From positions 2,912,001 to 2,976,000 of the forward strand of contig OY762428.1 in assembly GCA_963665665.1 (NCBI GenBank): a stretch of DNA of 64,000 nucleotides, in the 5' to 3' direction. This DNA is from Candidatus Kapaibacterium sp. (GTDB taxonomy: Bacteria; Bacteroidota; Ignavibacteria; Kapaibacteriales; UBA2268). Under the pieces are notes generated by a model that searched no databases, was not told the DNA's origin, and saw only the letters and a list, made by a program, of their open reading frames with translations. Positions 3,329-48,997 of the stretch are shown in pieces. Positions within the stretch are counted from its first letter, which is position 1. Every line of letters begins with the position of its first letter. The position numbers and the translations under genes are program-made.

Positions 3329-3338
3329 ATCTTCCTCC

Positions 3339-4928: not shown

Positions 4929-4930
4929 CT

Positions 4931-5045: not shown

Positions 5046-5101
5046 GTTTATATTTCTACAAATCCAGTTAATTCTCATGGAAAGCTATGGCTCTTATAAA
5101 A

Positions 5102-5140
5102 AGAAAAAGCTGAACCTTTTATTGAGATTCCAGTTTTTCT
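5102..5140 (-). terminator. Probable intrinsic terminator after ompA-like moron
   Basis: Imperfect hairpin with A/T tails; shares TTGAGATTCC with the 15458-15489 hairpin. Confidence 0.45.
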
Positions 5141-5184
5141 GTGAATACCTTGGCAGATGAGGATTTGAAGAAAAATTAGCATTG

Positions 5185-6546
5185 CTACTTTAAAAATTTA
5201 AATTCTACCCTTCTGTTTTTTGCTTTGCCTTCATCAGTTTTATTATCTGCAATAGGTTTAGATTCTCCATATCCAATAGCAATAAGATTATTTTTGTTAA
5301 TACCTTTTTTGATTAAATAGTTTACAACTGATTGGGCCCTTGATTGTGACAAACGTTTGTTGTAGGAGTCGCTGCCATCACTATCAGTATGACCGGAAAT
5401 TTCTACCTTAACATTTGGATATTCCTTAAGCAATTCAACTAATCTATCGAGTTCGGAATATGATTCGGGCCTCAAATCCGATTTATTATATTCAAAAAAG
5501 ATATTGTTTACAGTAATACTCCCATCCCAGGGTTTCTTCATTATAATGTCTTTAGTTATGGTAGTTTCTTTCTTTTGACCTTTCAACATTGCATTATCAG
5601 ATATGCTTGAGTATCCCTTCTTTTGAAAATAAAATGCATAATTCGAGCCTATAGGAACTTTGAATTCATAGCTCCCATCAGACGGCGAACTATTTGTAGT
5701 TCCTATTTCAACATTTTTATAATTCTCGCTCATCAGCTCCCACCCTACTTTAACTTCCAAAGGCGATCCGTTCGTCGTTTTTACAGTTCCTTTTACGGTT
5801 GCAAAGACAGGCGTTCCTTCGCCAAAAAGCTTTAGTATTGCAGGCTGCGTCTGGTTTTCATAACTTACGATTATTCTGCCGTCCGTCCTTCCGTCCTTCA
5901 CGGGAGCAAAACCGATATTCAATTCTTTGGTTTCATTCGGAGCCAAAGAAAAAGGAGTAAATTTATCGGTTAAAGAAAACTGCGAACCGGACTCGTTATC
6001 GATCGAAATTGAAGTAATTTTTATCGGACTTGTACCTATATTTTTTATCGCTTTCGATATAGCCCTGTCCGATTGAGAAAATATCGGGACTTTGCCAAAA
6101 TCGACAATTCCGGAATAAACTTCGATTTTCGCCTCGACGCTCTCGCCCGAGATTTTATAGATCAGCGTATCGGCCTGCGTTACTATAACGACGTCGGCCG
6201 TTTTCATTCCTGAGCTTTGCGGATTAAAGCGAAACTCGATATCCCTGCCAGAATTCGACGGAATAGAAAAGGGGAACACATACGTCAAAAGCCGGAAATC
6301 ATTAGCATGATCTCCGGCAATAGTAATATTATCAATCCTAACAGCAAACTTTCCCGTATTTTGTAAATAACCGGCAAAAACGGAATCCTTTTTTGTATTA
6401 TTCAATACTTGCCCGAAATCAATATCCATTGCCGACGCTTTGGGAACGATAATTGAAAGTCGATTGTCTGATTTGTCCTGGATTTGAGCTAAAGTCTCAA
6501 TATGTAGAGACAACAGCAAAACAATATATAAAATTAAATATTTCAT
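5185..6546 (-). CDS. OmpA-family protein with two ASH/Ig-like domains (moron)
   Basis: Signal peptide; C-terminal NNIFFEYNKS...ISGHTDSDG...NKRLSQSRA...KNRRVEF OmpA peptidoglycan-binding domain. Confidence 0.85.
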   Translation of the reverse strand: MKYLILYIVLLLSLHIETLAQIQDKSDNRLSIIVPKASAMDIDFGQVLNNTKKDSVFAGYLQNTGKFAVRIDNITIAGDHANDFRLLTYVFPFSIPSNSGRDIEFRFNPQSSGMKTADVVIVTQADTLIYKISGESVEAKIEVYSGIVDFGKVPIFSQSDRAISKAIKNIGTSPIKITSISIDNESGSQFSLTDKFTPFSLAPNETKELNIGFAPVKDGRTDGRIIVSYENQTQPAILKLFGEGTPVFATVKGTVKTTNGSPLEVKVGWELMSENYKNVEIGTTNSSPSDGSYEFKVPIGSNYAFYFQKKGYSSISDNAMLKGQKKETTITKDIIMKKPWDGSITVNNIFFEYNKSDLRPESYSELDRLVELLKEYPNVKVEISGHTDSDGSDSYNKRLSQSRAQSVVNYLIKKGINKNNLIAIGYGESKPIADNKTDEGKAKNRRVEFKFLK

Positions 6547-6570
6547 TCTTATATCCTTAATAATTTCAAA

Positions 6571-8652: not shown

Positions 8653-8732
8653 GATAATTTCCAATCTTATTTCCCAAAATAATTCAAATTAACATATTTT
8701 TGGGAAAAAAAAAAACGAGATTGTTTTTCAAC

Positions 8733-9020
8733 TTAATTACAAACCGCCACTCCGGCAAAAGCAAACTTGAACTCGATTTGAAGCTCATTCTCAGAGATAT
8801 GCTCTATATGCCCGTAAACGACATTGCCGGAGCTGTCGAGGGAAGAAACGGAAGGCCTTTTATTGAGATTGTGGGTAACTGTCCAGATTTGGCTTGCTGT
8901 TAGCTGTTCGTGGATATAGTGGACATCGGCAATACCCGGTTCAAGATCATCAGGTTTGATCTTACCGAGCTTGTTGAATTTGATCTCGCCATTCTCTATA
9001 TCTGCTTTTTGGACAAACAT
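8733..9020 (-). CDS. Small phage structural protein (THNL domain)
   Basis: WTVTHNLNKRPSV motif related to the C-terminus of 3339-4928. Confidence 0.65.
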   Translation of the reverse strand: MFVQKADIENGEIKFNKLGKIKPDDLEPGIADVHYIHEQLTASQIWTVTHNLNKRPSVSSLDSSGNVVYGHIEHISENELQIEFKFAFAGVAVCN

Positions 9021-9466
9021 TACTTAGTCAGGCTCCCGACAGTGAACCCAACAGCGACACCGCCGATAATATAAACCGGAGTTTCCCACCACGAGCGTTC
9101 TCTCATGATTTCTTTGGTGATATAAATAGTCTGAATCATTGTGCTGTCCGGTTTCTTCCTAATCATCAGATCAAAGCTATTTTCCGGGAACTCGTATTTT
9201 GCATAAACCGTATCCCTTTTGATAACCGTGTCAACCACAGCTACAAATGGCTTTGTCTCAATCATAGTATCCCGTTTGTAGATGATTTTCGGCTTAATCT
9301 TCTCAATAACTATCGGTTCGGATTCCTTAATAATCAGAACTGTATCCTTCCGGATAATGGTATTGGTAATCGGCTCGCAATGCTTAGTTGACCTTCCGAG
9401 AAAGAATGACAATGCAATCATTACGAGAATCAGGATTGTTCCGGCTATGTATTTGTATTTTTCCAT
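9020..9466 (-). CDS. Spanin-like membrane protein of lysis cassette
   Basis: N- and C-terminal hydrophobic segments, RDT repeats, follows endolysin. Confidence 0.5.
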   Translation of the reverse strand: MEKYKYIAGTILILVMIALSFFLGRSTKHCEPITNTIIRKDTVLIIKESEPIVIEKIKPKIIYKRDTMIETKPFVAVVDTVIKRDTVYAKYEFPENSFDLMIRKKPDSTMIQTIYITKEIMRERSWWETPVYIIGGVAVGFTVGSLTK

Positions 9467-10071
9467 TAGCTATTTACCGAAGTAAATCCAACAAAACCTC
9501 TTACAGCCATCCTTCCTATGAAATGCTTGTAATTTCTCTTCCTGATATATACTCCTTCGCCATCATCCTGAGAGCCTTTCCTGCCGGAACTTGTATTGAA
9601 ACCTACAGTCCTAATCCATCCGGCTTTCATAACTTCGATTATCCTCTCAACATGACCACGCCAAACTCTCGGCTTTTTCCAGAAAATCAGGTCATTGACT
9701 TTCGGAAAAGGAAATGTTTTCCTGCCATTCTTCATAGCATGGTTGAACATGGATACGGTTGAGCCTGTTCTTTTAATCGGTATTTCAGATAATGCAAAAC
9801 TCAAATCCTGACAGGCAGAATAAAAACACCAGTACTGGCCTGCCGCACAATAAGGATTACCTTTTCTCAGACCTACAGATTTGAGGTACTGCTCAACCAT
9901 ATATCCGTCATTCCTGCCAGTCCTTTCCTTTACTCCAACCTGGGCAATGGCAGAATCTGCCGACGCCTGAATCAATTCACTCCTGCACGTCATTACATAT
10001 CTTGCAAGCGGAAAAAGCTCGGCAGAGGCCGCTATATGAAGTAATATCAGCAATATTATCTTGTATTTCAT
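9466..10071 (-). CDS. Endolysin, CHAP-like, with signal peptide
   Basis: GVKERTGRNDG..VEQYL..VGL..GNPYCAA (Cys) ... GHVE (His) ... GFNT. Confidence 0.75.
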   Translation of the reverse strand: MKYKIILLILLHIAASAELFPLARYVMTCRSELIQASADSAIAQVGVKERTGRNDGYMVEQYLKSVGLRKGNPYCAAGQYWCFYSACQDLSFALSEIPIKRTGSTVSMFNHAMKNGRKTFPFPKVNDLIFWKKPRVWRGHVERIIEVMKAGWIRTVGFNTSSGRKGSQDDGEGVYIRKRNYKHFIGRMAVRGFVGFTSVNS

Positions 10072-10079
10072 AGTAGCAC

Positions 10080-10424
10080 CTAATTAGCAAACTGAGCGAT
10101 ATATACACCAAGAACAATCAGACCGACAAGAATATGCACTCCAAGGAAAATGTATCCGAGAACGTTTAGGACAGCTCCCTTTTCGGAGGAATTGATCTTG
10201 CCGTCATCTCCTTCCAGCAGGAATTTTGTAAAAGGTATCCGGGTGTAAACATAAAGTGCTATTCCAGACAATGCCAAAGCAGATGCTTCGAGAAATGCTA
10301 TCAGTAGGAATGTCTGAATCTCAGCGCTTCCCGGTTTCAAGAAGAAGTATGCTATGGCTCCGAGTATTATCCAAACAGTGTTTCTGGAAATAAAGTCGAT
10401 TACTGCTTTCAGTTTGTCATTCAT
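10080..10424 (-). CDS. Putative holin
   Basis: 114 aa, three hydrophobic helices, directly upstream of endolysin. Confidence 0.6.
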   Translation of the reverse strand: MNDKLKAVIDFISRNTVWIILGAIAYFFLKPGSAEIQTFLLIAFLEASALALSGIALYVYTRIPFTKFLLEGDDGKINSSEKGAVLNVLGYIFLGVHILVGLIVLGVYIAQFAN

Positions 10425-10435
10425 ATTTTACCTTT

Positions 10436-10726
10436 CTAATATGTACTTACTAAATGTTCGTTGAATCTTTTCTGAAGTTCTGTAAGGATGAGCTTAATGG
10501 CTTCAAGTTCCTTTTTTACCTGGTCATCATAGATGTCAACCCTTTGTTCAAGAAGCTTTACCCGGCGTTCCAGGTCATTGAATTTTTCGACATCTGCCAG
10601 CTTCTTTGAGAATATTTCCTCATTGGCTTTCCTGTTGTCCCTTTTCAGCATAAAATAGAAGGTCAGAAGCCCGATAATCAGGATTCCGAACTGTATGATG
10701 TTATATATCAGATTGCTTGTAGTCAC
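10436..10726 (-). CDS. Single-TM coiled-coil protein (holin/antiholin-like)
   Basis: N-terminal TM plus coiled coil, in lysis cassette. Confidence 0.5.
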   Translation of the reverse strand: MTTSNLIYNIIQFGILIIGLLTFYFMLKRDNRKANEEIFSKKLADVEKFNDLERRVKLLEQRVDIYDDQVKKELEAIKLILTELQKRFNEHLVSTY

Positions 10727-10729
10727 GCC

Positions 10730-11131
10730 CTAATCCCCAATGAAATAAACTGTCGGAAGCATAAATCTCATCTCATAATGCCATTTGTCATCTTCGACAA
10801 AGAGAAACTTCTCAGTCAGAGGATAAAGCTTCATATTCTCAATGTATAGGTCATTCGTCAGGGAATACCGGACCCTGTCCAGAGTTTCATAAGCCCCGAG
10901 ATGAGAACGAAGGTTTCTGACAATGACAATCACATCAATTTCAATCATCCTTGCCTGCTGTTCCAGCCTCGGATTTGTATAGTTTGAGCCTTCATAACTG
11001 ACCAACACTGCTCCGTTGGGATGCAGTAGTTCGTAATCCTTCACATTCTCCGGAAAAGGCTCAACAGCCAGATCGGTAATATCCGCCTGGAGCTTGGCTA
11101 CAATAGCATTTTCTATGTCTTTAATAGTCAC
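10730..11131 (-). CDS. Mu gp37-like tail-completion protein
   Basis: IENAIVAKL...FPE...HPNGAVLVSY.GS...GAYETLDRVR; follows gp36-like gene. Confidence 0.7.
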   Translation of the reverse strand: MTIKDIENAIVAKLQADITDLAVEPFPENVKDYELLHPNGAVLVSYEGSNYTNPRLEQQARMIEIDVIVIVRNLRSHLGAYETLDRVRYSLTNDLYIENMKLYPLTEKFLFVEDDKWHYEMRFMLPTVYFIGD

Positions 11132-15645: not shown

Positions 15646-18600
15646 TTACATACAGTTAGGATCTGGCATTTCATCCACATATCCATGAATATCATTTTTA
15701 GAATGAATTTGTATGTAAACGATTGGAATAATAATCCTTCCAGTTTTATCAATAAAGCCGTATTTCCCATCTTTTGCTACTTTTGCCAGTCCTTTATAAA
15801 AATAATCTGCATAGTCATATTCAACAGGTACTAATACTTTGCCGCTTTTATCTATAAAGCCGTATTTCCCATCTTTTGCTACTTTTGCTAGGCCTTCGCT
15901 GAAAGAAGAGACATGATCATATTCAACAGGTACTATTACTTTACCGCTTTTATCTATAAAACCCCACTTATCACCTTTTCTTACTCTTGCAAAACCTTCA
16001 TGGAAAAAAATGCATCCATCATATTCAACAGGTACTATTACTTTTCCGCTTTTATCAATAAAACCGTATTTCCCATCTTTTTCTACTATTGCTAGGCCTT
16101 CGCTGAAAGAAGAGACATAATTATATTCAGGTACTATTACTTTGCCGCTTTTATCTATAAAACCGTATTTCCCATCTTTTTCTACTATTGCTAGGCCTTC
16201 GCTGAAATAAGAGACATAATTATATTCGAAAGGTACTATTACTTTGCCGCTTTTATCTAAAAAGCCGTATTTGCCATCTTTTTCTACTCGTGCAAGACCT
16301 TCGTTAAAAGAATCGACATAATCATATACAAGGGGTATTACTAGTTTACCCCTTTTGTCTATAAACCCATATTTCCCATCTTTAGAAACTTTCGAAAGCC
16401 CATCGCTGAAACCATAGAAAAACTCATTATCATAATCAAGCGACATAATTTCCTTACCGCCTTTATTTATAATAAATCTTTTCCCATCTTTCATAACTTT
16501 AGCGTAGTCATCTTCATAGAAATGAAATTTTTTATCATATATTAATGGAATTACTACTTTACCGTTTTTATCAACCGATCCCCATTTTCCTTTTTTTTGA
16601 ATTTGAATTAAATCACCATCTCTGAAACAAGAGACTTTATTATATTTCAATGGAATGACAAATTTTCCTTTCTTATTAATAAAGCCTAAACTACTTCCGA
16701 CTTCCACTTCTGCAAGACCGTCGCGGAAAAAATCAATCCAATCATATTCGAAAGGTATTACGACTTTACCACTTTTATCAATAAAGCCATATTTCCCATC
16801 TTTTTTTACTCCTGCAAGACCTTCTCTGAACCAATTTGCATCTTCATATTCGAAAGGTATTACGACTTTACCACTTTTATCAATAAAGCCATATTTCCCA
16901 TCTTTTTTTACTCCTGCAAGACCTTCTCTGAACCAATTTGCATCTTCATATTCGAAAGGTATTACGACTTTACCACTTTTATCAATAAAGCCAAATTTTC
17001 CATCTATTCTTACACTTGCAAGACCTTCTCTGAACCAATATGCTTCTTCATATTCAAATGGAATAATTTCCTGACCATTATTTTTAATATCAATATAACC
17101 CCATTTCTCTGATTTTTTTGCTAGAACAATTCCTTCTGAAAGTGAATTGTATTCTATTCTTTCGTATTCAGGTGGAACTATTGTTTTCCCAGTTCTATCA
17201 ATAAGTCCTCTACCTCCATTTGTTTTTCCTACTTCAAAATATTCATTATATGATCCAGTAATTGAACGATATTTAAAATCAACAACTACTTCACCTAAGC
17301 TGTCAATTATTCCATCATACCCTTTTGTATCTGTTACATGTGCCAAACCATTATGATAATTAAAGGCATTAATATATATAAATGGAATTACGACTTCTCC
17401 TTTTTTATTAATATATCCATACTTTCCATCCTTTTTGACATATGCTAATCCTTCAGAGAAATTTCCCACTGAAGATTTATCATATATAGGTTTATATTTA
17501 GATTCATAAATATCATATTTAATAGGAATGACGACTTTTCCAGTAGAATCTATATATCCGGTTTTACCGTATTTTTCAACCCTAACCAGCCCTTCGTTGT
17601 AGTTACCAATAAAATCATAGTCTAATGGAAAAACTACAGCTCCCGAGGTATCTATATATTTCCATACTCCTTCTTCTTTAACTCTTGCAATGCCTTCTTG
17701 AAAATCACTCACTTCTTCATACTTAGTGGCAATTACACCTTTCCCTGTTGTGTCTATAAACCCCCACCCATTCAAATAACCGCCTTTTGCATGTTTTACT
17801 TTAGCAAAACCATTTTTAAAATTATTAATAATTTCATATTCGACAGGTAATACTTCTTCACCTTTGTTATTTATTATCCCATATCGATAACAACGACCTT
17901 GACAACATATACCTTGAACCCTTGCTAATTTTTGATTTAAAAATTCAATGTTAGAGTAATCAAAACTAAATAACTCATCACCGCTTTTATCAATGAAAGT
18001 CTTTTTTCCACCTATTATTACCTGGGCGATCCCATCACTGAAATCTCCAGCTTCGTCATAATCAAAAGGTATTACAACATTGCCACTCTTGTCAATAAAT
18101 CCACACTTTCCATTTTTTCTCACCTTGGCAAGTTCTTCTGAAAAGTTAAAAGGATAGTCATAAGGGATATAAACCCCGAGAGATTCCAAATTAATAACAA
18201 TATTCCCACTTTTATCTATAAAGCCGTATTTCTCATCCTTATTTACTGCTGCAAGACCTTCATGAAAATTCTCAGCCCTGTCATACTCAAACGGAATGAC
18301 TATTTTACCGGTTTTATCTATAAAGCCATATTTATTTCCTTTACGTACTCGTACAAGATTATCTGAAAATTCCCAAACTGCAGCATATTCAGAATAGAAA
18401 ATGATTTTTCCGTTTTTGTCAATAAAGCCCCACTTATCATCTTTTTTTACTTTTGCCATTCCATTTTTGAAATCATGAGCTCTTTCAAATTCATAAGGAA
18501 TTACTTCATTGCCGCTCTTGTCAATAAAGCCATACTTCCCATCTTTTTCTATAGCAGCTAAATCTTCTGAAAAATCATTGCTTTTATAAAATTTGAAAGA

Positions 18601-19050
18601 TATTAACAACTTTCCTTTTTTATCTATGTATCCTGACTCTTTATTATTATAAACTCTTGCGAGTCCACAACTAAAATCTCTTGCCTCAGTGTATTTTATT
18701 GGAATTACTACTTTGCCGCTTCTATCTATAAAGCCGTAATCACGATCTTTTTTCACTAATGCAAGTTCATCGCTGAAAGATCCGGCCTTATCATATTCTA
18801 AGGGAACAACAATTTCTCCATCATTATTAATAAAGCCCCATTTCCCATTACTACTTACTCTCGCAAGCCCTGAATGAAAATCACCCACAAATTCGAATTC
18901 TTCTCTAAAAGTAAGAAAGACATCTCCATCTTTATCAAGAAAATGGAATTGCCCTTTTCCATCATTTGCAATAAAAGCAATATCTTTATTATTATCACAT
19001 GCAGAGATTAGTATTATCATAAAACTTAAAATAATTGAAATTCTGGTCAT
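15646..19050 (-). CDS. WG-repeat (KWG) lipoprotein (moron)
   Basis: Lipobox-like ISAC; about 30 repeats of FSEGLA.V.KDGKYGFIDK.G.VVIP..Y. Confidence 0.9.
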   Translation of the reverse strand: MTRISIILSFMIILISACDNNKDIAFIANDGKGQFHFLDKDGDVFLTFREEFEFVGDFHSGLARVSSNGKWGFINNDGEIVVPLEYDKAGSFSDELALVKKDRDYGFIDRSGKVVIPIKYTEARDFSCGLARVYNNKESGYIDKKGKLLISFKFYKSNDFSEDLAAIEKDGKYGFIDKSGNEVIPYEFERAHDFKNGMAKVKKDDKWGFIDKNGKIIFYSEYAAVWEFSDNLVRVRKGNKYGFIDKTGKIVIPFEYDRAENFHEGLAAVNKDEKYGFIDKSGNIVINLESLGVYIPYDYPFNFSEELAKVRKNGKCGFIDKSGNVVIPFDYDEAGDFSDGIAQVIIGGKKTFIDKSGDELFSFDYSNIEFLNQKLARVQGICCQGRCYRYGIINNKGEEVLPVEYEIINNFKNGFAKVKHAKGGYLNGWGFIDTTGKGVIATKYEEVSDFQEGIARVKEEGVWKYIDTSGAVVFPLDYDFIGNYNEGLVRVEKYGKTGYIDSTGKVVIPIKYDIYESKYKPIYDKSSVGNFSEGLAYVKKDGKYGYINKKGEVVIPFIYINAFNYHNGLAHVTDTKGYDGIIDSLGEVVVDFKYRSITGSYNEYFEVGKTNGGRGLIDRTGKTIVPPEYERIEYNSLSEGIVLAKKSEKWGYIDIKNNGQEIIPFEYEEAYWFREGLASVRIDGKFGFIDKSGKVVIPFEYEDANWFREGLAGVKKDGKYGFIDKSGKVVIPFEYEDANWFREGLAGVKKDGKYGFIDKSGKVVIPFEYDWIDFFRDGLAEVEVGSSLGFINKKGKFVIPLKYNKVSCFRDGDLIQIQKKGKWGSVDKNGKVVIPLIYDKKFHFYEDDYAKVMKDGKRFIINKGGKEIMSLDYDNEFFYGFSDGLSKVSKDGKYGFIDKRGKLVIPLVYDYVDSFNEGLARVEKDGKYGFLDKSGKVIVPFEYNYVSYFSEGLAIVEKDGKYGFIDKSGKVIVPEYNYVSSFSEGLAIVEKDGKYGFIDKSGKVIVPVEYDGCIFFHEGFARVRKGDKWGFIDKSGKVIVPVEYDHVSSFSEGLAKVAKDGKYGFIDKSGKVLVPVEYDYADYFYKGLAKVAKDGKYGFIDKTGRIIIPIVYIQIHSKNDIHGYVDEMPDPNCM
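16742..16992. repeat. Exact 102-bp tandem repeat, about 2.5 copies, inside WG gene
   Basis: tcatattcgaaagg... restarts at 16742, 16844 and 16946. Confidence 0.85.
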
Positions 19051-19118
19051 GATTACCTCAAGGATATTTTCAAAAGTTTTTATTTTCCCTTAATTTACTA
19101 AATATTTGTTAACTCTCA

Positions 19119-19177
19119 AACACCCAATCCCCACACTGAGTGCATTTCATAATACCCGGTCTTTGATTTGTTTTGCA
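19119..19177 (+). promoter_or_regulatory. Putative late promoter P4 for the modification/packaging operon
   Basis: AACACCCAATCCCCACACTGAGTGCAT-N5-AATAC-N12-TTGTTTTGCA. Confidence 0.7.
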
Positions 19178-19245
19178 AAGGATTCAGCTAATTCTGGAAA
19201 ATTGATACAGGTTTATAGCTGATTCAGAATAAAAGCAATACAACA

Positions 19246-19959
19246 ATGGACGGTTTTATGAACAGGTTAACACCAAAACAAATCTATAATGAGCTTAGCG
19301 AAGTCTATGACCGGAGCTATGGCAGCAGGATACATGAGCTTGAGGATGATTATATTTACAGCTTCCTTGCTGAACACGGTTTTACAAAAGGCTGTCTTCT
19401 TGATTTAGGTTCCGGTACAGGTTCGATATTAAATCATGTCGGAATCAGGAAAGAAGATTATACCGGAATTGATGTTTCCGACAAGATGATCGAGATCAGC
19501 AAAAAGAAGTTTCCGGGATACAATTTTGCAATCGCTACTATGACCAACCTTCCTTTCGAAGATGAATCATTTGATAATGTCATTTCACTATTCGGCAGTT
19601 TTACATATGCCTATAAGCCCGGCAAAGCAGTTAAGGAACTGGATAGGGTTTTAAAGCCGAACGGTAAGTTCCTGATCATGGCTTGCGGAAAGAAGTACAA
19701 GTACAGGGAATCCTATATCCTGAATAAATTCGATATTGAAAGCCCGGCAAGGTTCTTTTCCAGAGATGAGCTAAAGGATTTATTCTTTGGATTCAGCAAT
19801 GTAAAGATATTCAGCATGACATGGTTAAGTGAAAAGCTTGCTGAAATACTTCCATACCGTTTAGACAGATTATACCACAACTTTGAAACAAAGTATCTAA
19901 GCCGGTTCATTCCCGAACAGTTTTACTTCCACATAATAATAGGACAGAAAGATGCCTAA
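19246..19959 (+). CDS. Class I SAM-dependent methyltransferase
   Basis: LLDLGSGTG motif I, GIDVSDKMI, LPFEDESFD, RVLKPNG. Confidence 0.85.
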   Translation: MDGFMNRLTPKQIYNELSEVYDRSYGSRIHELEDDYIYSFLAEHGFTKGCLLDLGSGTGSILNHVGIRKEDYTGIDVSDKMIEISKKKFPGYNFAIATMTNLPFEDESFDNVISLFGSFTYAYKPGKAVKELDRVLKPNGKFLIMACGKKYKYRESYILNKFDIESPARFFSRDELKDLFFGFSNVKIFSMTWLSEKLAEILPYRLDRLYHNFETKYLSRFIPEQFYFHIIIGQKDA

Positions 19960-21097
19960 GCATTATAGAATTGAAAATGTATTTGATGCAGCTCTGGACA
20001 GGATGATTAAGCTGTATGAAGATGGTCACAGGGTAGTAGTATCATTCTCTGGTGGCAAGGATTCCGGTATTTGCGTTGAGCTTGCCATTATTGCCGCTAC
20101 TCTAACAAATAAACTACCTGTTGAAGTGGTTATGAGGGATGAGGAAATAATGTATCCCGGAACATTTGAATATGCAGTAAGGATAGCTAATAGACCGGAA
20201 GTTAAGTTCTACTGGTATTATGCAAATCAGCCTATTGTGAATATCTTCAACAGACAGAATCCTTATTTCTGGGTTTTCGATCCGAAGCTGCCACCTGAAA
20301 AATGGGTACGACAACCTCCTGATTTTGCAGTTAAGATACCCGAGCAAAGCATACAGGGATTAATCGGACAGAATAAATTCCCTCCTGCTGAAGGTAAAAA
20401 ACTTATAGCTGTAATTGGACTCAGAACAGATGAATCCATGCTAAGGAAAATGGGTTTGATGTCCAGTAAAGGATATGTCACCAAAGGTAAAAGCTCTTAT
20501 GGAACATATAACGCAAGACCGATTTATGACTGGTCGGACGGGGATGTGTGGAAGGCTATCAGGGATAATAACTGGGATTACAACAAAGCTTATGATGTTA
20601 TGCACAGGCTGGGTATCAGCAGGAATAAGCTTAGAATAGCGCCTCCTACATTAGCAGCTGCAGCTATAGACGGTATGTCTATGGCAGCCAAAGCATGGCC
20701 TCAATGGTTTGATAAAGTATGTCAGAGATTACCCGGGGTAAGGACAGCAAGTATGTTCGGCAGAAGATCAGTTGAACCGATCAGGAAACTCGGGGAATCA
20801 TGGAAAGACTGTTTCCACAGGACTTGTATAGATGAAGCTCCGGATTGGATAGCAGAAAGATCAAGGAAGTTAGCTACCTATGTTTTGATGAACCATAAAA
20901 GGCATTCCACCGAAGCATTTCCGGAAGTTACAAAATGTCCTAAGTGTCAGATGACATCATCATGGAAGAATCTGGCAAAGATCATGTATATGGGGGAACC
21001 TTTCTCCATGAAAGTGAAAGTTGATGTACTGCCTTATGTGGAACCGGAATATTTCAGGGAAGGGGCCGGAACCTGGGGCGGAAAACCCACCTGGTAG
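19952..21097 (+). CDS. PAPS-reductase-family PP-loop protein (YbdN/IbrA/DndC-like)
   Basis: SFSGGKDS, RDEE, GLRTDES..R, PIYDW...DVW, CPKC. Confidence 0.85.
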   Translation: MPKHYRIENVFDAALDRMIKLYEDGHRVVVSFSGGKDSGICVELAIIAATLTNKLPVEVVMRDEEIMYPGTFEYAVRIANRPEVKFYWYYANQPIVNIFNRQNPYFWVFDPKLPPEKWVRQPPDFAVKIPEQSIQGLIGQNKFPPAEGKKLIAVIGLRTDESMLRKMGLMSSKGYVTKGKSSYGTYNARPIYDWSDGDVWKAIRDNNWDYNKAYDVMHRLGISRNKLRIAPPTLAAAAIDGMSMAAKAWPQWFDKVCQRLPGVRTASMFGRRSVEPIRKLGESWKDCFHRTCIDEAPDWIAERSRKLATYVLMNHKRHSTEAFPEVTKCPKCQMTSSWKNLAKIMYMGEPFSMKVKVDVLPYVEPEYFREGAGTWGGKPTW

Positions 21098-21183
21098 TTG
21101 ATAGTGGACAGTTGAAAGTGGACAGTGAGAAGAGAATAAAAGAAAAAATTAACTATCAACTATCAATTATCAACTTTCAACTG
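21095..21183. repeat. Heptamer-repeat inverted repeat
   Basis: tagttga-tagtgga-cagttga-aagtgga-cagtg, A-rich loop, aactatc-aactatc-aattatc-aactttc-aactg. Confidence 0.85.
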
Positions 21184-21254
21184 AAATTCGGCGTAAATAC
21201 TTGATAAATATAGGTTTACATACAATAATAAAATAGAGTAACCGTCTTAAATAT

Positions 21255-21542
21255 ATGGAACTTACATCATTTATAGAATTCATTGACAGCCAGAAATGGA
21301 TATTTGCAAAGACTTATGCAAATAAAGCTCCTCATTCTTACTGCTTGAAGAAAAACTGTGAGGATATTGAGCGCTTCAATCAGGCTGTACAGTTTATCCG
21401 GGACAACGGAGTCAAAGAATTCTTCTATCGCAAAGCATTCATATACTTTTATCATGACGGTTACAAGTACTGGACTATGGGAGCGCCCATAGCTCAGACA
21501 ATACTAATTAACCGGACAAATGATTTTAGTAAATATGAGTGA
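21255..21542 (+). CDS. Small protein of modification operon, unknown function
   Basis: Aromatic-rich WIFAKTY...PH.Y...GYKYWTMG...LINR. Confidence 0.7.
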   Translation: MELTSFIEFIDSQKWIFAKTYANKAPHSYCLKKNCEDIERFNQAVQFIRDNGVKEFFYRKAFIYFYHDGYKYWTMGAPIAQTILINRTNDFSKYE

Positions 21543-21547
21543 TTTGA

Positions 21548-22228
21548 ATGAAGACATTTGATGACGGAAAATGGCTCTACGGTGATTCCTGGGAACGTTT
21601 CCCGATAGAGACTGGTCAAGTATGGCGTGCAGGAAATAACGTCGTCTCGGCAAGGGATTTAACTCATTTGGGCAGTCTGAACTTTCTCGGCAGGGCAAAG
21701 TTCGATATGTCCTATATCGATCCTCCCTGGAATACCGGCAATATCAATTCCTTTTACACAAAAGCAGGTTTATCCGAAAGAAAGCAGTTTAACTCATTTA
21801 TTGAGAAACTGATCATTCTTATCAGGAAGCATTCCCCTTATGTGAACTATCTTGAGATGGGAAAACAGAACCTTGAATATGTAAAGGATCTGATCTACAA
21901 GCATAATGGAATAGTCACTAATGTATGGAAGATAAAATACTATCGTAAGCATGATTGCTACCTGATACGGTATTCCTTTACCTATCCGGATATGCTTGAT
22001 TATAACTTTACCGGAATGGATGACGAATTGACTCCCAAGATGGCAATCTTCATGGAAAAGAATGTTGAGAATGTTCTCGATCTCTGTACAGGACGAGGAC
22101 TAACGGGAAGAACAGCCTTTGCACTGGGTAAAGAGTTTTTCGGAATCGAACTGAATAAGAGAAGATTAGCCAATCTGCTTGATTTCTACAGTAAACAAGG
22201 TTTAACCATTAATAAATTGAGAGGATAA
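21548..22228 (+). CDS. Amino (N6A/N4C) DNA methyltransferase-like protein, beta order
   Basis: YIDPPW motif IV precedes VLDLCTGRG motif I, then FFGIEL. Confidence 0.7.
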   Translation: MKTFDDGKWLYGDSWERFPIETGQVWRAGNNVVSARDLTHLGSLNFLGRAKFDMSYIDPPWNTGNINSFYTKAGLSERKQFNSFIEKLIILIRKHSPYVNYLEMGKQNLEYVKDLIYKHNGIVTNVWKIKYYRKHDCYLIRYSFTYPDMLDYNFTGMDDELTPKMAIFMEKNVENVLDLCTGRGLTGRTAFALGKEFFGIELNKRRLANLLDFYSKQGLTINKLRG

Positions 22229-22229
22229 T

Positions 22230-23099
22230 ATGAGCACTTACAACACAACACCCGAAGCTACACAGAAAGCGGTTTCCGAAAAGATTATCAAAAAAGGTAA
22301 AAAGGAAATTGACAAAAAGAATGTATCACTAGGGGAACTGAAGATTGAATATGTCGGTGTAGATAGCATCAAACCTAATAACTACAATCCTAACAGACAG
22401 AGCGAGCATGATTTTGAACTGCTTCTAAAATCTATGGAAGAGGATGGATTCACACAGCCTATCATTGTTCAGCAAGACACAAAGATGATAGTGGACGGCG
22501 AGCATAGATGGAGGGCAGCATCTACTTTAGGCTATAAGGAAATCCCTGTGGTTTTCGTTGAAATGACACCGGAACAGATGAGGATTGCCACTCTCAGGCA
22601 TAACAGGGCAAGGGGAAGTGAAGACCTGGAACTGTCCGTTCAGGTTTTACGTGACCTTCAGGAACTTGGCGCAATGGACTGGGCACAGGATTCCCTTATG
22701 CTCTCCGATGATGAGATAAACAGGCTTCTTGAAGATATTCCCGTACCGGAAGCATTAGCCAATGAAGATTATAATCAGTCTTGGGAACCTACAGAACTTT
22801 CTGATGAAGATAGCAATGTAAACTCTACAGAAGCAAGGCCTGTTGACGGTTATACTTACGGTGGTGAAATGGTAACTGCTGCATCTTCCAAAGCTGTAGA
22901 TACCATCAAGGAAAGACAGGCTCTGATTGAACAAGCTAAAAATGAAGAAGAAAAGGAAATGGCAAAACAGCAGACAAAACTTTACAGGGTTTCCCTGATA
23001 TTTGCCAATGAGGAAGCAGAGATCATTGAAGGAGTTCTGGGTAAGGAACCTGCCGTTAAACTGCTTGAACTGTGTAAGAAAGAACTGGGTACTGAATAA
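22230..23099 (+). CDS. ParB/Srx N-terminal domain protein (YbdM/IbrB-like)
   Basis: PNNYNPN...DGFTQPI...IVDGEHRW...TLRHNRARG. Confidence 0.85.
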   Translation: MSTYNTTPEATQKAVSEKIIKKGKKEIDKKNVSLGELKIEYVGVDSIKPNNYNPNRQSEHDFELLLKSMEEDGFTQPIIVQQDTKMIVDGEHRWRAASTLGYKEIPVVFVEMTPEQMRIATLRHNRARGSEDLELSVQVLRDLQELGAMDWAQDSLMLSDDEINRLLEDIPVPEALANEDYNQSWEPTELSDEDSNVNSTEARPVDGYTYGGEMVTAASSKAVDTIKERQALIEQAKNEEEKEMAKQQTKLYRVSLIFANEEAEIIEGVLGKEPAVKLLELCKKELGTE

Positions 23100-23785
23100 T
23101 GACCGAAGCTTGGGAAAGGCTACCGGGCGAAACCAACAAAGCTTTTAATGCTTTCTGCATATATCGTGATCTTCGTCAGAACAGAAGTTTTACCAAAGTC
23201 CAGATTCAGCTTGGCAAAAAGAGCAAGTCATACATTGCTTACTGGTCCAAGAAGTATAACTGGATCGAACGGGTCAAGGCTTTTGATGATGACGAAGACC
23301 GCAAGAACAGGATTAAACAGCAGGAGAGCATTCAGAAGATGAACGAGAGGCAAGCCCAGCAGGCAGAGACATTCCAGAGGATATTGTTTCTGCCTGTTAC
23401 TGCTATTTCCGCAAGGCTCAAAAAAGACAGGGATAATAAAACACCAGCAATCGAGGATTTAAATCAGCTTGATACAATTCAGCTTATTGAGATGATTGGT
23501 CAGATGAGCAGGAATTACGGCAATCTTGTAAATATCGAAAGGATTGCACGTGGAGCGCCAACCGAGATCGGTAAAAGCGAGAATACTATAATAGTTCCAA
23601 ACAACATTGCAAAATACGGGGAGATGGTAGCTAATGACGAAAAAGCTACAGAGAAGCTTACTGAATACCTCTTTTGCCTGGGAGACCCTGAAAACGGCAA
23701 GCCCGGCAACGATGGCGATGCACCTGTCGGACGGGAAGTATCTGATAGCTCCTCACATAAACATACTGAACAAGAAACTTCTTGA
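23099..23785 (+). CDS. terS: Terminase small subunit (putative)
   Basis: WERLPGET.KAF.AF..YRDL...WS..YNW.ER..AFD HTH-type N-terminus, upstream of TerL. Confidence 0.65.
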   Translation: MTEAWERLPGETNKAFNAFCIYRDLRQNRSFTKVQIQLGKKSKSYIAYWSKKYNWIERVKAFDDDEDRKNRIKQQESIQKMNERQAQQAETFQRILFLPVTAISARLKKDRDNKTPAIEDLNQLDTIQLIEMIGQMSRNYGNLVNIERIARGAPTEIGKSENTIIVPNNIAKYGEMVANDEKATEKLTEYLFCLGDPENGKPGNDGDAPVGREVSDSSSHKHTEQETS

Positions 23786-25064
23786 TGTAGCCGGAGGAAG
23801 GACTAAGAGGCTTATTGTTAATATGCCTCCAAGACATGGCAAATCCGAGCTTATTTCAAGATATTTTCCGGCATGGTATCTCGGTACTTATCCGGACAGA
23901 AGGATTATTCTTGTTTCGTATGAAGCAGGCTTTGCAGCATCATGGGGAAGAAAAACAAAGGAACTATTGGAAGAGTATGGAGAGGATCTATTCGGTATTA
24001 AGCTTAACAGGCTGTCAAATTCAGCATACCGATGGGATGTGGCAGACCATGAAGGCGGACTGAATGCTACTGGTGTCGGTGGAGCGATTACTGGAAAGGG
24101 AGCAAATGTTCTAATCATTGATGATCCAGTCAAAAACGATGAACAGGCAAACAGTAAAACATATAGGGATAAAACATATGACTGGTTCAGGGCTACGGCA
24201 TATACAAGGCTGGAACCGGGTGGAGCTATAATTGTTATCATGACAAGATGGAACTTCGACGACCTTGCCGGAAGGTTATTGAATGATCCGGATTCTGATG
24301 ATAAATGGGAAGTGATAGATTTTCCGGCAATTGCTAAGGAAGATGATATCCTCGGCAGAAAAGAGGGTGAAGCCTTGTGGCCGTACAGGTATTCACTAAA
24401 GAAACTGCAATCAATAAAGAAGCAGATAGGTTCTTACTGGTTCAATGCTTTGTATCAGCAACAGCCTATAGCTTCGGAATACCAGATATTCAAAAGCCAG
24501 TGGTGGCAGGAATATTTGGATTTGCCGGATTATTCTATTCTAATCCAGTCCTGGGATACAGCTTTTAAAGAAAAGGAACAGAATGACTTCTCGGTTTGTA
24601 CTACTTGGGCTTTAACTAAGAACGGATATTATCTGGTTGATTACTGGAGAGGAAAAGTACTGTTTCCGGACCTGCAAAGGCAGGTTGTAATGCAATATAA
24701 CAAGTACAAACCTAATGTAGTTCTTATTGAGGATGCTGCAAGTGGACAGAGCCTTATTCAGGTTCTGCAGAGGGAAACAAAGATCCCGATCAAGGCAGTG
24801 AAGGCTATGAAAGATAAAGTTACAAGGGCACATCTGGTAACGCCACTATTTGAAGCAGGAAAGATATTCGTTCCAAAGGATGCTGTCTTTCTTGCAGATA
24901 TTATCAATGAATGCTCTGAATTCCCGTATGGCAATCATGATGATATAGTGGATTCAATCACTCAGGCTCTTGATTTCCTGAGAAAGAGGGTAGGTAGTTC
25001 AAAACCAGTAAATCTTATGAAAAATGTTCAGCAAAAAAGAGAGAATTTCTTCACCACTTACTAA
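23634..25064 (+). CDS. terL: Terminase large subunit
   Basis: MPPRHGKS Walker A, LIIDDP Walker B, SWDTA, HDDIVDS nuclease motifs. Confidence 0.92.
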   Translation: MTKKLQRSLLNTSFAWETLKTASPATMAMHLSDGKYLIAPHINILNKKLLDVAGGRTKRLIVNMPPRHGKSELISRYFPAWYLGTYPDRRIILVSYEAGFAASWGRKTKELLEEYGEDLFGIKLNRLSNSAYRWDVADHEGGLNATGVGGAITGKGANVLIIDDPVKNDEQANSKTYRDKTYDWFRATAYTRLEPGGAIIVIMTRWNFDDLAGRLLNDPDSDDKWEVIDFPAIAKEDDILGRKEGEALWPYRYSLKKLQSIKKQIGSYWFNALYQQQPIASEYQIFKSQWWQEYLDLPDYSILIQSWDTAFKEKEQNDFSVCTTWALTKNGYYLVDYWRGKVLFPDLQRQVVMQYNKYKPNVVLIEDAASGQSLIQVLQRETKIPIKAVKAMKDKVTRAHLVTPLFEAGKIFVPKDAVFLADIINECSEFPYGNHDDIVDSITQALDFLRKRVGSSKPVNLMKNVQQKRENFFTTY

Positions 25065-27853: not shown

Positions 27854-29884
27854 TCAAGACGATAATCCTAATTTATCAAAGAAAGCTTGGTTTCTTTCTT
27901 TTGCTGCTTTTACCAATTTATCAAAGGAAATAACTTCAATATAGGCATTATAATTATCGTTATAGCCGAAATACCCCATCTTATCATAAGAAATCTTCAA
28001 TCCAAATAGTTTACACCTTTCTTTCACAGATGAAGTTAAGTCACTCAAAACATAACAAAATCCTGGAACATTTTGAGATTCAGGAATCGGCCTTCCCGAA
28101 TGAGTATTTACTTTACCTTCACGTACTCGTTCTAAATATTTTAATGCTTGCTCGATTGGGTCTTTTTCCTCTCCAGATTTTGCATCATTTCTCATTGGTC
28201 TTTTTATTTCAATAACTATTATTGATGCTAATGGTAGTTCTTCACCATCATTAACAAGTAAGGGATTGTCAAATACATTTAATCCCATAATATCAGGTTC
28301 TTTTGTTTTTGTAGAATCTGTAATTGGCATAGACTTTAATGTTTTATCTGAAGCTAAATAATTGTGAAATGCAAATCTTTCATCAACTAACCATAGATTA
28401 CTGTCATCGGATTTAATTTCTTGACTTTCTTTACCCATTGGCATAATTAATTGGTGTATAAAGTCCTCACGGATATACTTGCCATCTGATTGTTTCTGAA
28501 TTGCCTTATTCAGAAGTTCGATAATTACTTTTCTATGTGAAACATAGCTGGCTAAATCAGATTTTTTTATATCTGATGCTTTTAAAAGATAATCATTTAA
28601 TTTTGCTTCATACTCATCTATCTCAAGAATTGTTTCTTGACTTAAGAGAGTGTGACCATCATCAAGAAGTTTACTTTCAATATCAAACAAATATTTATGC
28701 AATGTAAGTTCAAGATCTTTGTCATTAATATTAGGGTCGACTGCAAGATCATCTTCTGAAATTGAGTTTAAAATTGATTTGTACTTTGGTGCCCGGTTTG
28801 CAACAAAATTATCTACTCTTTCTCTTCCTTTCTTTTTGTTTTCTATCAAATATCCACTCAAATACTCTGAAATATGCTCAATCATTTTAGTTCTAATATC
28901 TTTAAAAGATAAGTCACTATCTTCAAAAAGCCCATCTGACTCGTCTTGGATGTTAAATCCAATTCGTTCGGGTCTTACTGATTCGTCAAGATATTCAGAA
29001 GTTATGAATCCAAGATAAGTAAATGTCTTCTCGTCTTCTCCTATTAATGCACCATATAAACCCGGTATTTTTCCATTGATATTCTCGTCTTTAACAACTC
29101 TATTTCCTGCACAATATGCAATTGAATGTTGTCTTGATGAAGTAGTAAGCAGTTTAACATGAATTAGGTTAAATTCTTTTTCTTTGTGTTCGATTTTTTC
29201 AACGAAAGATGATTCAATCATATACTCCTCAAAAATTGTATCAAGATTTTGAAGATCCTCTCCATCATTGACAGTTATTTTGGGAATACCTCCACCTCTG
29301 ATGAAATACCAGAGGCAATGCTCTAATAGTTCTTTTGCAATGGTTTCCGCAGTTTTTTTTGAATATTTTAAATATGGTTTCTTGAATCCAATTAAAGAAA
29401 GTTCAGTTTTTAAGTCTAGTGGTTCAGATATACTTAACAGATTTTCATTGCAAACATCATTTTCAACTTCAAAATCAAATGTTCTTTTTTGGTGATTCCC
29501 TTCAGAATCTTTAAAAATACTTATAACTGATACTTTTTCAAATGCTTTTAACCATAAAAGTCTGCCAATACCACGGCATCCTTTTTCGGCTTTATAATCA
29601 GAATCAAATGTTTGAAATGAAATATAGTTATTATTATCAAATCCAATTCCATTATCGGTGATTTTAAACCCAGTAATTTCAGGCTTTTGACCAGTTTCTA
29701 AATCTAAAGCAATTTGATTTGACCTAATAATGTCGACTCTAATATAAGACTCCTCAAAATCAATACCTCTTTCTTCAATTGAATGAATTGAATTGACGAC
29801 AGCTTCAAAAAGTGGCAAAAGTGCATGTGTTTTAGGCAATGTCGTATTTTTTAATCTGCCTTTCAAAAAAGTATTCATACTCAT
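27854..29884 (-). CDS. GHKL/MORC-type ATPase fused to a C-terminal PD-(D/E)xK nuclease (candidate defence moron)
   Basis: EAVVNSIH, DNGIGF, GCRGIGR; C-terminal EPDI...IVIEIKRP; AT-rich. Confidence 0.7.
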   Translation of the reverse strand: MSMNTFLKGRLKNTTLPKTHALLPLFEAVVNSIHSIEERGIDFEESYIRVDIIRSNQIALDLETGQKPEITGFKITDNGIGFDNNNYISFQTFDSDYKAEKGCRGIGRLLWLKAFEKVSVISIFKDSEGNHQKRTFDFEVENDVCNENLLSISEPLDLKTELSLIGFKKPYLKYSKKTAETIAKELLEHCLWYFIRGGGIPKITVNDGEDLQNLDTIFEEYMIESSFVEKIEHKEKEFNLIHVKLLTTSSRQHSIAYCAGNRVVKDENINGKIPGLYGALIGEDEKTFTYLGFITSEYLDESVRPERIGFNIQDESDGLFEDSDLSFKDIRTKMIEHISEYLSGYLIENKKKGRERVDNFVANRAPKYKSILNSISEDDLAVDPNINDKDLELTLHKYLFDIESKLLDDGHTLLSQETILEIDEYEAKLNDYLLKASDIKKSDLASYVSHRKVIIELLNKAIQKQSDGKYIREDFIHQLIMPMGKESQEIKSDDSNLWLVDERFAFHNYLASDKTLKSMPITDSTKTKEPDIMGLNVFDNPLLVNDGEELPLASIIVIEIKRPMRNDAKSGEEKDPIEQALKYLERVREGKVNTHSGRPIPESQNVPGFCYVLSDLTSSVKERCKLFGLKISYDKMGYFGYNDNYNAYIEVISFDKLVKAAKERNQAFFDKLGLSS

Positions 29885-29974: not shown

Positions 29975-30247
29975 TTACCCCATTTCCCTCATAATCTTAC
30001 CGACAACCCTTTCATTCATACCAAGCTCCCGGGCAATTTTCTTTATCGGAATTTCTTTAGCATTGGCTTTGATATAGCGTTCAACGAGAGAACGGAGAGA
30101 TGTAAACATCGGGATGGATACAGTTATTCCGCCCAATTCTCTGATAAGGGTTCTGGCAGTTTCAATACCGCAGGTTTCGGATACGATCTGGAAATGCTCC
30201 GGTAAGTCCTGCTCTTCAAGCAAGTTGATTATTTTGTCGTTTCTCAT
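29975..30247 (-). CDS. Mor/C-family transcription activator
   Basis: DLP......E.CG.E.A..L..ELGG..V.IP plus C-terminal HTH (KKIARELGMNERVV); last gene of early operon. Confidence 0.75.
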   Translation of the reverse strand: MRNDKIINLLEEQDLPEHFQIVSETCGIETARTLIRELGGITVSIPMFTSLRSLVERYIKANAKEIPIKKIARELGMNERVVGKIMREMG

Positions 30248-48995: not shown

Positions 48996-48997
48996 TT

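Follow-up and report, generated by a model that had tools for sequence, protein, structure and literature searches.

The closest described counterpart of the genes considered here is the IbrA/IbrB pair of Escherichia coli, which in the original work is said to activate prophage gene expression; E. coli relatives of the pair carry the annotation 'co-activator of prophage gene expression'. A literature search, from whose coverage subscription journals were mostly absent, found no biochemical activity for IbrA/IbrB and no description of an extended cassette built around them. Phage papers, in their accessible portions, leave the pair unassigned or consider that it might serve virulence or sulfur metabolism (PMC4541368, PMC12323421). 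Here, we describe a cluster of five genes that includes such a pair and lies in a prophage of Candidatus Kapaibacterium sp., within a stretch of 64,000 nucleotides (contig OY762428.1, positions 2,912,001 to 2,976,000) that is referred to below as the window and from whose first nucleotide all coordinates are counted. From the sequences of the five proteins and the comparison of related loci we propose, with moderate confidence, that the cluster is expressed late and forms a cassette for ParB-assisted modification of DNA and protection from restriction.

Related enzymes and partners have been connected with DNA elsewhere. In Dnd/Ssp-type systems, as presented in the available portions of the sources, a PP-loop enzyme and a ParB-superfamily partner act on DNA (PMC10853773, PMC12839542), and the same sources describe DpdB and DndB as members of the ParB superfamily that partner enzymes modifying DNA. 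Phages are, according to the accessible text, enriched in ParB-fold proteins fused to methyltransferases of the N6_N4 and Methyltransf_23 families (PMC12704722), and ParBc genes accompany CmoX DNA-modification genes (PMC12783734, likewise available in part). A preliminary description of the window, made from the sequence alone, had leaned on DndC/SspD in phosphorothioation, on IbrA/IbrB as a PAPS-reductase/ParB pair, on ParB-linked modification genes beside phage terminases and on Mu mom. Precedents for ParB-assisted modification of phage DNA and for a PAPS domain that counters Dnd do exist in the accessible parts of two reports: a thymine dioxygenase (5mYOX) needs a phage ParB-like protein to act on double-stranded DNA (PMC13229309), and the Vibrio podophage protein p0018 (PAPS domain::Dam), together with p0019, lets the phage infect Dnd-carrying hosts (bioRxiv 10.1101/2021.05.05.442762, Piel et al., cited as reference 56 in PMC13551039).

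The five genes occupy positions 19246–23099 of the forward strand (approximately 3.9 kb; four or five genes, depending on the locus) and are predicted to encode, in order, a class-I S-adenosylmethionine (SAM)-dependent methyltransferase of 237 aa (MT1, 19246–19959), an IbrA-like PP-loop ATP pyrophosphatase of 381 aa (19952–21097), a 95 aa protein of an unnamed domain family that partners class-I methyltransferases (s95, 21255–21542), a small beta-class-like amino-methyltransferase of 226 aa (MT2, 21548–22228) and an IbrB-like ParB-N protein of 289 aa (22230–23099). MT1 overlaps the IbrA-like gene by 8 nt, and s95 and MT2 are separated by 5 nt and MT2 and the ParB gene by 1 nt, so that the single larger gap, of 157 nt (21098–21254) between the IbrA-like gene and s95, leaves two translationally coupled blocks. 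All five genes were where the preliminary description had placed them, and the family matches agree with the content claimed there. They are more than chance open reading frames (ORFs), because all five are conserved at the protein level in a sister prophage in the same genome and in a prophage of another genome.

The IbrA-like enzyme matches the Pfam family PAPS_reduct (PF01507; 39.3 bits against a cut-off of 22.5, E 8.6e-10) and, across 300 residues, phrog_2302, 'PAPS reductase' (E 8.1e-60). Its PP-loop, S-F-S-G-G-K-D-S at residues 31–38 (20042–20065), includes S33, G35, K36 and D37, which are invariant in all 39 aligned homologues, and the SxGGKDS motif plus around 20 other residues are invariant across these sequences at identities down to 20 %. 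In searches with the AlphaFold2 (AF2) model (pLDDT 92.7), the best structural neighbours of residues 4–248 were the PAPS domain of FAD synthase (Z 16.1), APS/PAPS reductases (Z 13.4–14.6), CysD (Z 14.3), TilS (Z 11.5) and NcsA (Z 11.3), and Foldseek agrees. The structure searches essentially cover these residues and scarcely reach the C-terminal part (249–381), which is a helical domain of approximately 130 aa that IbrA also has. A search of PDB sequences with the PAPS profile gave nothing significant (best E 0.11).

Alignment of profiles with hhalign extends the relationship to IbrA along nearly the whole protein. Against a profile of distant IbrA-like sequences, which share 20–28 % identity with the window's enzyme, the probability was 100 (E 9.2e-52, 347 columns, 2–366 of 380), and against an E. 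coli phage protein annotated as IbrA it was 99.4. DUF3440 is present at E 3.4e-87 in a member of the distant profile, from locus L045; in the window's own protein it was not detected directly by Pfam at E≤0.01. The alignment of the ParB partners likewise matched E. coli phage IbrB (probability 100, E 2.6e-39, 154 columns). Judged by this full-length homology (hhalign probability 99.4–100 %), the IbrA-like enzyme and its ParB neighbour are an IbrA/IbrB-type pair, which bears out the likeness drawn in the preliminary description.

The homologues of the IbrA-like enzyme divide into a close clade (18 loci, 42–84 % identity, many phyla) and a distant one. Five Cys and His residues (C292, H315, H318, C329 and C332) are present in all 20 close-clade sequences and may form a metal site. 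They include the C329-x-x-C332 motif (20936–20947) to which attention had been drawn before. The motif is real, being found throughout the close clade, and is not a catalytic feature of the whole family, because none of the 19 distant sequences has it; indeed, no cysteine is invariant among the 39 homologues. One homologue of 617 aa (P0020) carries an insert of approximately 235 aa precisely within WDYNxAYD, one of the invariant motifs. With Cys as its first residue, TxxH- and LAGxxDGxG-like motifs inside and Asn followed by Ser at its end, we take the insert to be an intein with a homing endonuclease; no intein family was matched in P0020 by Pfam at E≤0.001. The candidacy of P0020 as an MT1-PAPS fusion was ruled out, since it is a PAPS homologue with the 235 aa insert. 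Another apparent fusion of this kind, in L027, has both parts in one frame and lies on a contig of 2.5 kb, where it may be an error.

The ParB-N protein matches PF02195, the ParB_N domain of the ParB-CTPase fold (52.7 bits against 26.3, E 4.4e-14), includes the arginine motif DGEHRWRA, and shares with all 28 aligned partners the residues N50, N53-P54-N55, D89-G90, H92-R93 and A127-R128-G129. Its best structure matches are DNA-bound ParB/Noc/Spo0J proteins, and with PADLOC it also matches ParB domains that are fused to type II methyltransferases (E 8.8e-14). The close-clade proteins are longer, owing to a clade-specific acidic linker and a conserved C-terminal segment of approximately 45 aa that may be a ribbon-helix-helix; Pfam gave no match in the C-terminal 55 aa. 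A role in partition (ParABS) was considered and rejected: the score with TIGR00180 (ParB/RepB/Spo0J) is below threshold (52.5 against 58.45), the match to solved ParB/Noc structures is confined to the N-terminal domain, and Pfam scans found no ParA-like gene in the window's prophage.

MT1 is a member of the class-I methyltransferases (Methyltransf_11, E 2.6e-20; Methyltransf_25, E 2.5e-17) and resembles the small-molecule methyltransferases UbiE and BioC; its best PDB sequence matches are uncharacterised SAM methyltransferases, with RlmA at 3.8e-7. One of seven MT1 homologues scanned, a 390 aa protein from a Planctomycetota locus (L031:5808-6977), has an N-terminal match to AdoMet_dc, the S-adenosylmethionine decarboxylase family (27.3 bits against a cut-off of 25, residues 14–78), which hints that some members of the MT1 family may use decarboxylated SAM.

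The s95 protein matches no family in Pfam, PHROG or NCBIfam. It nevertheless represents a large family, of which a full-library search recovered 1657 cluster representatives at E≤0.001, 440 of them at E≤1e-10, and its homologues are either free-standing (approximately 90–130 aa) or parts of longer proteins. H27 and W73 are invariant, and the pattern PHxY / YWTMG / INR is nearly so. No Pfam or PHROG family was matched by more than one of 59 members. Among 25 longer s95 proteins scanned, 11 have a class-I methyltransferase domain, which may precede or follow s95, and there was one weak ParB_N match and one match to DUF433. The AF2 model of s95 has a pLDDT of 93.5, and when its fold was compared with the PDB nothing rose above noise (Foldseek best E 0.11; best Z 4.7 in a wide VIA search); the PDB sequence search and the ESM Atlas gave no usable match, and among viral models the single fold match was to an unnamed 93 aa protein (E 9.5e-9). 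Drawing on the s95::methyltransferase fusions and on a set of viral loci described below, we conclude that MT1 and s95 are the split form of a common two-domain protein that goes with the IbrA/IbrB pair.

The match of MT2 to N6_N4_Mtase falls just short of the cut-off (26.6 bits against 26.7, E 6.8e-6). The protein has DPPW at residues 58–61 (21719–21730) and a glycine-rich LDLCTGRG close to the C-terminus, which we take to be methyltransferase motifs, and weak PADLOC matches to type II/III methyltransferases; there was no match in PHROG or NCBIfam and nothing significant in a PDB sequence search. It is accessory to the cassette, because only eight of the 18 close-clade loci include it.

The association of these genes was examined in 59 genome loci, which are contigs from one genome per species. 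A ParB gene is on the same strand within approximately 2 kb of the IbrA-like gene in 56, and abuts it in all 41 distant-clade loci. Two of the three loci with no ParB gene nearby are contig ends, and in the third (L036) the IbrA-like gene adjoins YqaJ-RecT-RadC. Across the close clade, which spans Ignavibacteria-type, Chthonomonadaceae, Dehalococcoidia, Planctomycetota, Spirochaetia, Chloroflexia, Gemmatimonadetes and Actinomycetota loci as judged from record titles, MT1 directly precedes the IbrA-like gene at 16 of 18 loci and s95 is found at 13; six of the 18 are near relatives of the window, so that the independent lineages number closer to a dozen. In distant loci, the proteins share 49–62 % (IbrA-like) and 43–71 % (ParB) identity with those of the window, MT1 shares 21–32 %, and for most terminases no counterpart could be detected. 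The ParB-N partner co-evolves with the IbrA-like enzyme.

A scan of viral contigs that started from one s95::methyltransferase fusion retrieved 80 loci, 78 of them with an IbrA-like gene and 75 with all five components, in the order s95, MT1, MT2, ParB, IbrA, ParB, ParB. These loci are mostly of one lineage, and, the query having been a different protein, they do not depend on the first search. One locus from Rhodobacteraceae combines ParB, an s95::MT1 fusion, MT2, an IbrA-like gene (27 % identity) and ParB. Lack of co-conservation, which the preliminary description had named as grounds for abandoning the idea of a common function, was not found; co-conservation extends far beyond close relatives.

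The family is large. A search with the IbrA-like enzyme found 820 proteins at E≤1e-5 among 2275 candidates, and the 120 matches listed share 55–100 % identity with it; their source names point to Chloroflexi, Blastocatellia, Kapabacteria, sediment metagenomes and one archaeon, of the Methanosarcinales. In the phage collection searched, no isolated phage has a homologue above 60 % identity, all of the 225 matching records lying below. A match was found in 4 of 61 related genomes and 2 of 201 genomes sampled from the phylum, a sporadic distribution of the kind expected for mobile cargo. Many distant loci, mostly from Clostridia by their record titles (L042, L048, L057, L059, L060, L066, L067, L069 and L070), have a second, shorter PAPS-type paralogue 0.5–1.5 kb upstream of the IbrA/IbrB pair, sometimes with a ParB gene of its own.

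The cassette has a characteristic position. In the window, it is followed by terS (small terminase, 23099–23785, forward strand; phrog_6299, E 1e-22) and terL (large terminase, 23634–25064, forward strand; Terminase_6N and Terminase_6C, phrog_38, E 1.3e-122), and the ParB stop codon overlaps the terS start codon in TAATG, a junction that can be read directly in the sequence just as it was first described. The proximity to terminase genes, also remarked on from the outset, holds in phages with unrelated packaging machinery, as the cassette is directly before or inside packaging modules with four TerL families (Terminase_6, TerL_ATPase, GpA and Terminase_3). It precedes Terminase_6 in the window, Terminase_4 with TerL_ATPase and an HK97-type portal in L030, GpA and a lambda-type portal in L040, Terminase_3 in L021, and Terminase_6C with an SPP1-type portal in L063. 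A Pfam terminase was found no more than two ORFs downstream in 5 of 11 loci scanned; in the others, no packaging gene was found or the contig ends. Among phages, the order in Mycobacteriophage Compostia is ParB, two small genes, PAPS-like, ParB and terminase, Flavobacterium phage FCV-1 has the IbrA/IbrB pair between terL and the portal gene, and in Pseudoalteromonas phage XCL1123 the pair is upstream of the portal gene. One chromosomal pair is in a non-phage context (L045; PheT-QueA-IbrA-IbrB-MCP), between queA and a chemoreceptor gene.

If the cluster is indeed a modification cassette, it would modify replicated phage DNA ahead of packaging, and the progeny would escape host restriction or modification-sensing defences. 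By analogy, the IbrB-like ParB-N protein would bind DNA and admit its partner enzymes to double-stranded DNA. The IbrA-like enzyme would use ATP to adenylylate an oxygen of the target, for which DNA phosphate is our preferred guess because phosphate or sulfate oxyanions are the substrates of its nearest structural relatives. MT1, with s95, would then add or finish a methyl-bearing mark on the product or nearby, and MT2, where present, would be an optional extra, probably producing plain N6-methyladenine or N4-methylcytosine. A more detailed version, in which the IbrA-like enzyme is placed on the duplex by ParB and adenylylates a DNA phosphate in the backbone or at a nick, MT1-s95 completes a sulfur-free mark and s95 is a new DNA- or base-recognition module, is in its entirety doubtful.

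Several observations weigh against modification of DNA by the cassette. DNA as the substrate is deduced from the partners and from precedent only, and the MT1 family is mostly known for small-molecule substrates, while the ParB fold includes kinases, one of which, SerK, is matched by the ParB-N protein (E 5.9e-8). The annotation of the E. coli relatives points to regulation, and the pair between terL and portal in FCV-1, like that in mycobacteriophages at the place where a small terminase is expected, fits a role in packaging equally well. The pair in L045 is not in a phage, and L036 encodes a close homologue of the IbrA-like enzyme with no ParB gene within 7 kb. No gene for a donor of a nucleophile (amidotransferase, desulfurase or carrier) was found in 99 neighbouring ORFs scanned. 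Finally, the Vibrio PAPS::Dam protein, whose anti-defence effect is one of the precedents, may belong to another PAPS subfamily; no Vibrio phage is among the matches listed (the best 100 of 226 phage records).

Some of these observations would be accommodated if the pair served packaging or late expression, with a ParB complex or clamp at the pac region or at late promoters, loaded or processed in an ATP-dependent manner by the PP-loop partner, and with the two methyltransferases as ordinary, separate anti-restriction enzymes of the same late operon. We consider this possible and on balance unlikely. It would explain why the pair is inside or directly before the packaging modules of four terminase families, even between terL and portal, and why the ParB gene is translationally coupled to terS, and it agrees with the database annotation of a co-activator of prophage gene expression. 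The extra conserved C-terminal segment of the close-clade ParB proteins could bind DNA, and in L040 a DUF1492 protein, from a family that includes late activators, is encoded two genes upstream of the pair. However, the window has its own terS (phrog_6299) and a Mor-like gene, the pair in L045 is found without any phage genes, and the full catalytic PP-loop is retained. MT1 and s95, moreover, accompany the pair across phyla, in overlapping frames and in fusions, which would not be expected of unrelated functions.

Rather more doubtful is a target other than DNA, namely a nucleotide, small molecule, tRNA or protein that would undergo AMPylation and methylation in the service of anti-defence or host takeover. 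ParB/Srx-fold proteins can be kinases or NTPases instead of DNA binders, and the ParB-N protein does match the ParB-fold serine kinase SerK (NCBIfam, E 5.9e-8; PDB 5x0j and others). The resemblance of MT1 to UbiE and BioC, the AdoMet_dc match on the L031 homologue, and the fact that the nearest structures of the PP-loop domain act on flavin mononucleotide or sulfate would all be in keeping with such a target. Yet the ParB protein is matched best by DNA-bound ParB/Noc/Spo0J proteins and by ParB domains fused to type II methyltransferases, the MT2 of those loci that have one resembles DNA methyltransferases, and a position beside the terminase genes is hard to explain by a metabolic function.

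Phosphorothioation of phage DNA, with DndC/SspD-like insertion of sulfur into the backbone and host sulfur donors, is very improbable. The IbrA-like enzyme belongs to the same broad PP-loop/PAPS-reductase group, with weak PADLOC matches to DndC (E 7e-7) and BrxP (E 1.2e-10), the close clade has a CxxC motif, and in Dnd/Ssp, too, an enzyme of this kind has a partner from the ParB superfamily (PMC10853773). Against this, the score with the DndC model TIGR03183 is 21.2 bits, far from the cut-off of 290.4, and represents a partial match (residues 151–211, E 1.1e-4), no cysteine is invariant, and all 19 distant members that lack CxxC keep the same ParB partner. Neither the operon nor 99 neighbouring ORFs of 11 loci include a gene for a cysteine desulfurase, DndD/DndE or SspA/SspC (E≤1e-4), and the one AAA_23/SMC_N-like gene of the window (34330–36291) is on the other strand in the early region, 11 kb away and unlinked to the cassette. 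An auxiliary metabolic gene for CysH-like sulfate assimilation, as implied by the Pfam name and phage record annotations and repeated in the accessible text of PMC12323421, was already disfavoured and is almost certainly wrong, given scores of 17 against 154 (NF002537) and 16 against 165.1 (TIGR00434) with CysH models, a canonical ATP-binding PP-loop and 130 aa helical C-terminal domain common to IbrA, and a constant neighbour that is a ParB protein and not a sulfur-metabolism gene. Sulfur chemistry of either kind is, therefore, poorly supported, with DndC and CysH scores far under the cut-offs, no invariant cysteine and no partners.

The preliminary description had also placed all of the genes behind a late promoter, P4. 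This could not be confirmed: a scan for sigma-70 promoters was at the level of chance (46 sites against 50.1 expected from shuffled sequences), and the gap between the IbrA-like gene and s95, with an inverted repeat in it, divides the cluster. What remains of the proposal is a non-coding block before MT1 (19096–19245, forward strand), found by alignment of eight related prophages and conserved in all eight, 40–110 nt ahead of the start codon, which is a candidate promoter or regulatory site. Its invariant stretches are TTGTTTTG and (T/C)(G/A)ATAC, and TTGATAC is included. One sigma-70-like match at 19202–19230 scores 9/12. The core word TTGTTTTGCAA is not enriched in the window (7 occurrences against 4.05 expected) and no common late-promoter motif emerged; the terminator scan was also at chance (10 against 10.1 from shuffles). 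The imperfect inverted repeat in the gap (21096–21182; 31 nt arms, 77 % complementary) is composed of 14 nt direct repeats. A copy that is 79 % identical and in the opposite orientation precedes the head protease gene in the sister prophage (L009 8040–8124), and the 157 nt gap region does not align with locus L010. The inverted repeat may be a small mobile or regulatory repeat.

The carrier is a temperate phage with Mu-like head genes, and the cassette heads its packaging operon. Downstream of the cassette, terS and terL (Terminase_6) are followed by genes for a Mu-type portal and for Mu F-like and Mu G-like proteins. A leftward head operon from 15364 encodes a decoration protein, the major capsid protein, Mu gp36 and Mu gp37. 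An S24 repressor gene is at 40501, and the early operon reads leftwards to the Mor-like gene (29975–30247; Mor match of 22.1 bits against a cut-off of 24.9). The sister prophage in the same genome (L009, G000:C1:4398000-4417999) shares 89 % nucleotide identity over the packaging operon, its IbrA-like protein being 99 % identical to that of the window, and the prophage in another genome shares approximately 72 % nucleotide identity; both have the same divergent arrangement and all five cassette genes. The nearest public records are Ignavibacteria, Kapaibacterium and Bacteroidetes metagenome-assembled genomes.

Two further genes of the prophage, which flank the operon, look like inserted cargo, because neither has a nucleotide match in the related prophages. 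One, for a 1134 aa protein with 28 WG repeats (15646–19050, reverse strand), is absent from both and interrupts the divergent promoter region, and the other encodes a 676 aa protein with a weak HATPase_c_3 match (27854–29884, reverse strand). Beyond the Mu gp36/gp37-like genes, no ORF in positions 1–11131 (reverse strand) matched a tail-protein family in a Pfam scan; apart from small ORFs and a weak match to CHAP, the region has genes for a protein that combines VWA with Fib_succ_major, for one with an OmpA domain and for two proteins of approximately 530 aa, one with a weak fibre match. Adjoining the prophage repressor is a type I restriction-modification locus (41654–52224, forward strand) with HsdM at 41654, HsdS at 46129 and a 996 aa ORF at 49234, interleaved with Hypoth_Ymh, M78/HTH, DUF4411 and Schlafen/AlbA_2 genes, and the region looks like a defence island.

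Genes for a 'PAPS reductase' are common in phages and are usually taken for helpers of sulfur metabolism. A large and strongly conserved group of them instead appears to encode ATP-using enzymes tied to a ParB-type partner at packaging genes, often in the company of a methyltransferase and of a small domain that is missing from the databases. If the cassette does mark DNA, it would represent a new route by which phages escape restriction and modification-sensing defences, a new enzyme chemistry on DNA and a function for the long-unexplained IbrA/IbrB pair; if the mark starts from an adenylylated phosphate, the modification of DNA would belong to a new chemical class, written by a cassette that many phages and prophages across many phyla carry. 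The cassette is small, and the bacterium that it comes from is a harmless environmental one.

Among the known systems, Mu mom is a late-expressed modification gene at the far end of the Mu late region. The cassette resembles it as a candidate for modification genes in a transposable-phage-like genome, in a window that has a Mor-like gene, and differs in that it stands at the head of the packaging operon. As none of the five proteins matched a Mom or acetyltransferase family (Pfam, PHROG, NCBIfam), the analogy with mom drawn in the preliminary description is one of presumed timing and of position and does not extend to sequence or fold. DndBCDE, SspABCD and BrxP (type 4 BREX) likewise pair a PP-loop enzyme of the PAPS-reductase group with a ParB-superfamily protein; unlike them, the cassette has no desulfurase, DndD/E or restriction partner and no family-wide cysteines, and its setting is the late operon of a phage, where theirs is a host defence island. 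With Vibrio p0018, in so far as that protein is described in the accessible text, it shares a PAPS-reductase-type domain genetically tied to a DNA methyltransferase, and for p0018 an anti-defence effect has been shown; p0018 is a single fused protein for which the same text reports no ParB. The cassette also resembles, from partial accounts of them, 5mYOX, the ParB-methyltransferase fusions and DpdB, in that a ParB-N protein with no partition partners is found beside a post-replicative DNA-modifying enzyme, whereas the enzyme that partners ParB here is predicted to be a PP-loop ATP pyrophosphatase, and the partners in those systems are dioxygenases, methyltransferases or a transglycosylase. 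A PAPS/IbrB pairing goes unmentioned in PMC12704722, whose main text has 0 occurrences of PAPS or IbrB.

The closest likeness is to the IbrA/IbrB pair of E. coli prophage islands, which likewise combines a PP-loop PAPS_reduct enzyme with a short ParB-N protein; the helical C-terminal domain of the window's enzyme aligns with that of IbrA-like proteins and may be of the DUF3440 type. The ParB signature NxYNPN, DGxHR and NRARG is that of IbrB, and both pairs are borne by phages or prophages, the pair having also been noted in Flavobacterium phages 6H and FCL-2. The identity is only 20–28 %, and the window's clade is set apart by the extra Cys/His set, a longer ParB with a C-terminal segment, and the addition of MT1, s95 and MT2. 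The cassette can be described as an IbrA/IbrB-type pair to which a methyltransferase, a domain with no earlier description and, in some loci, a predicted DNA methyltransferase have been added, and it is widespread and strongly constrained.

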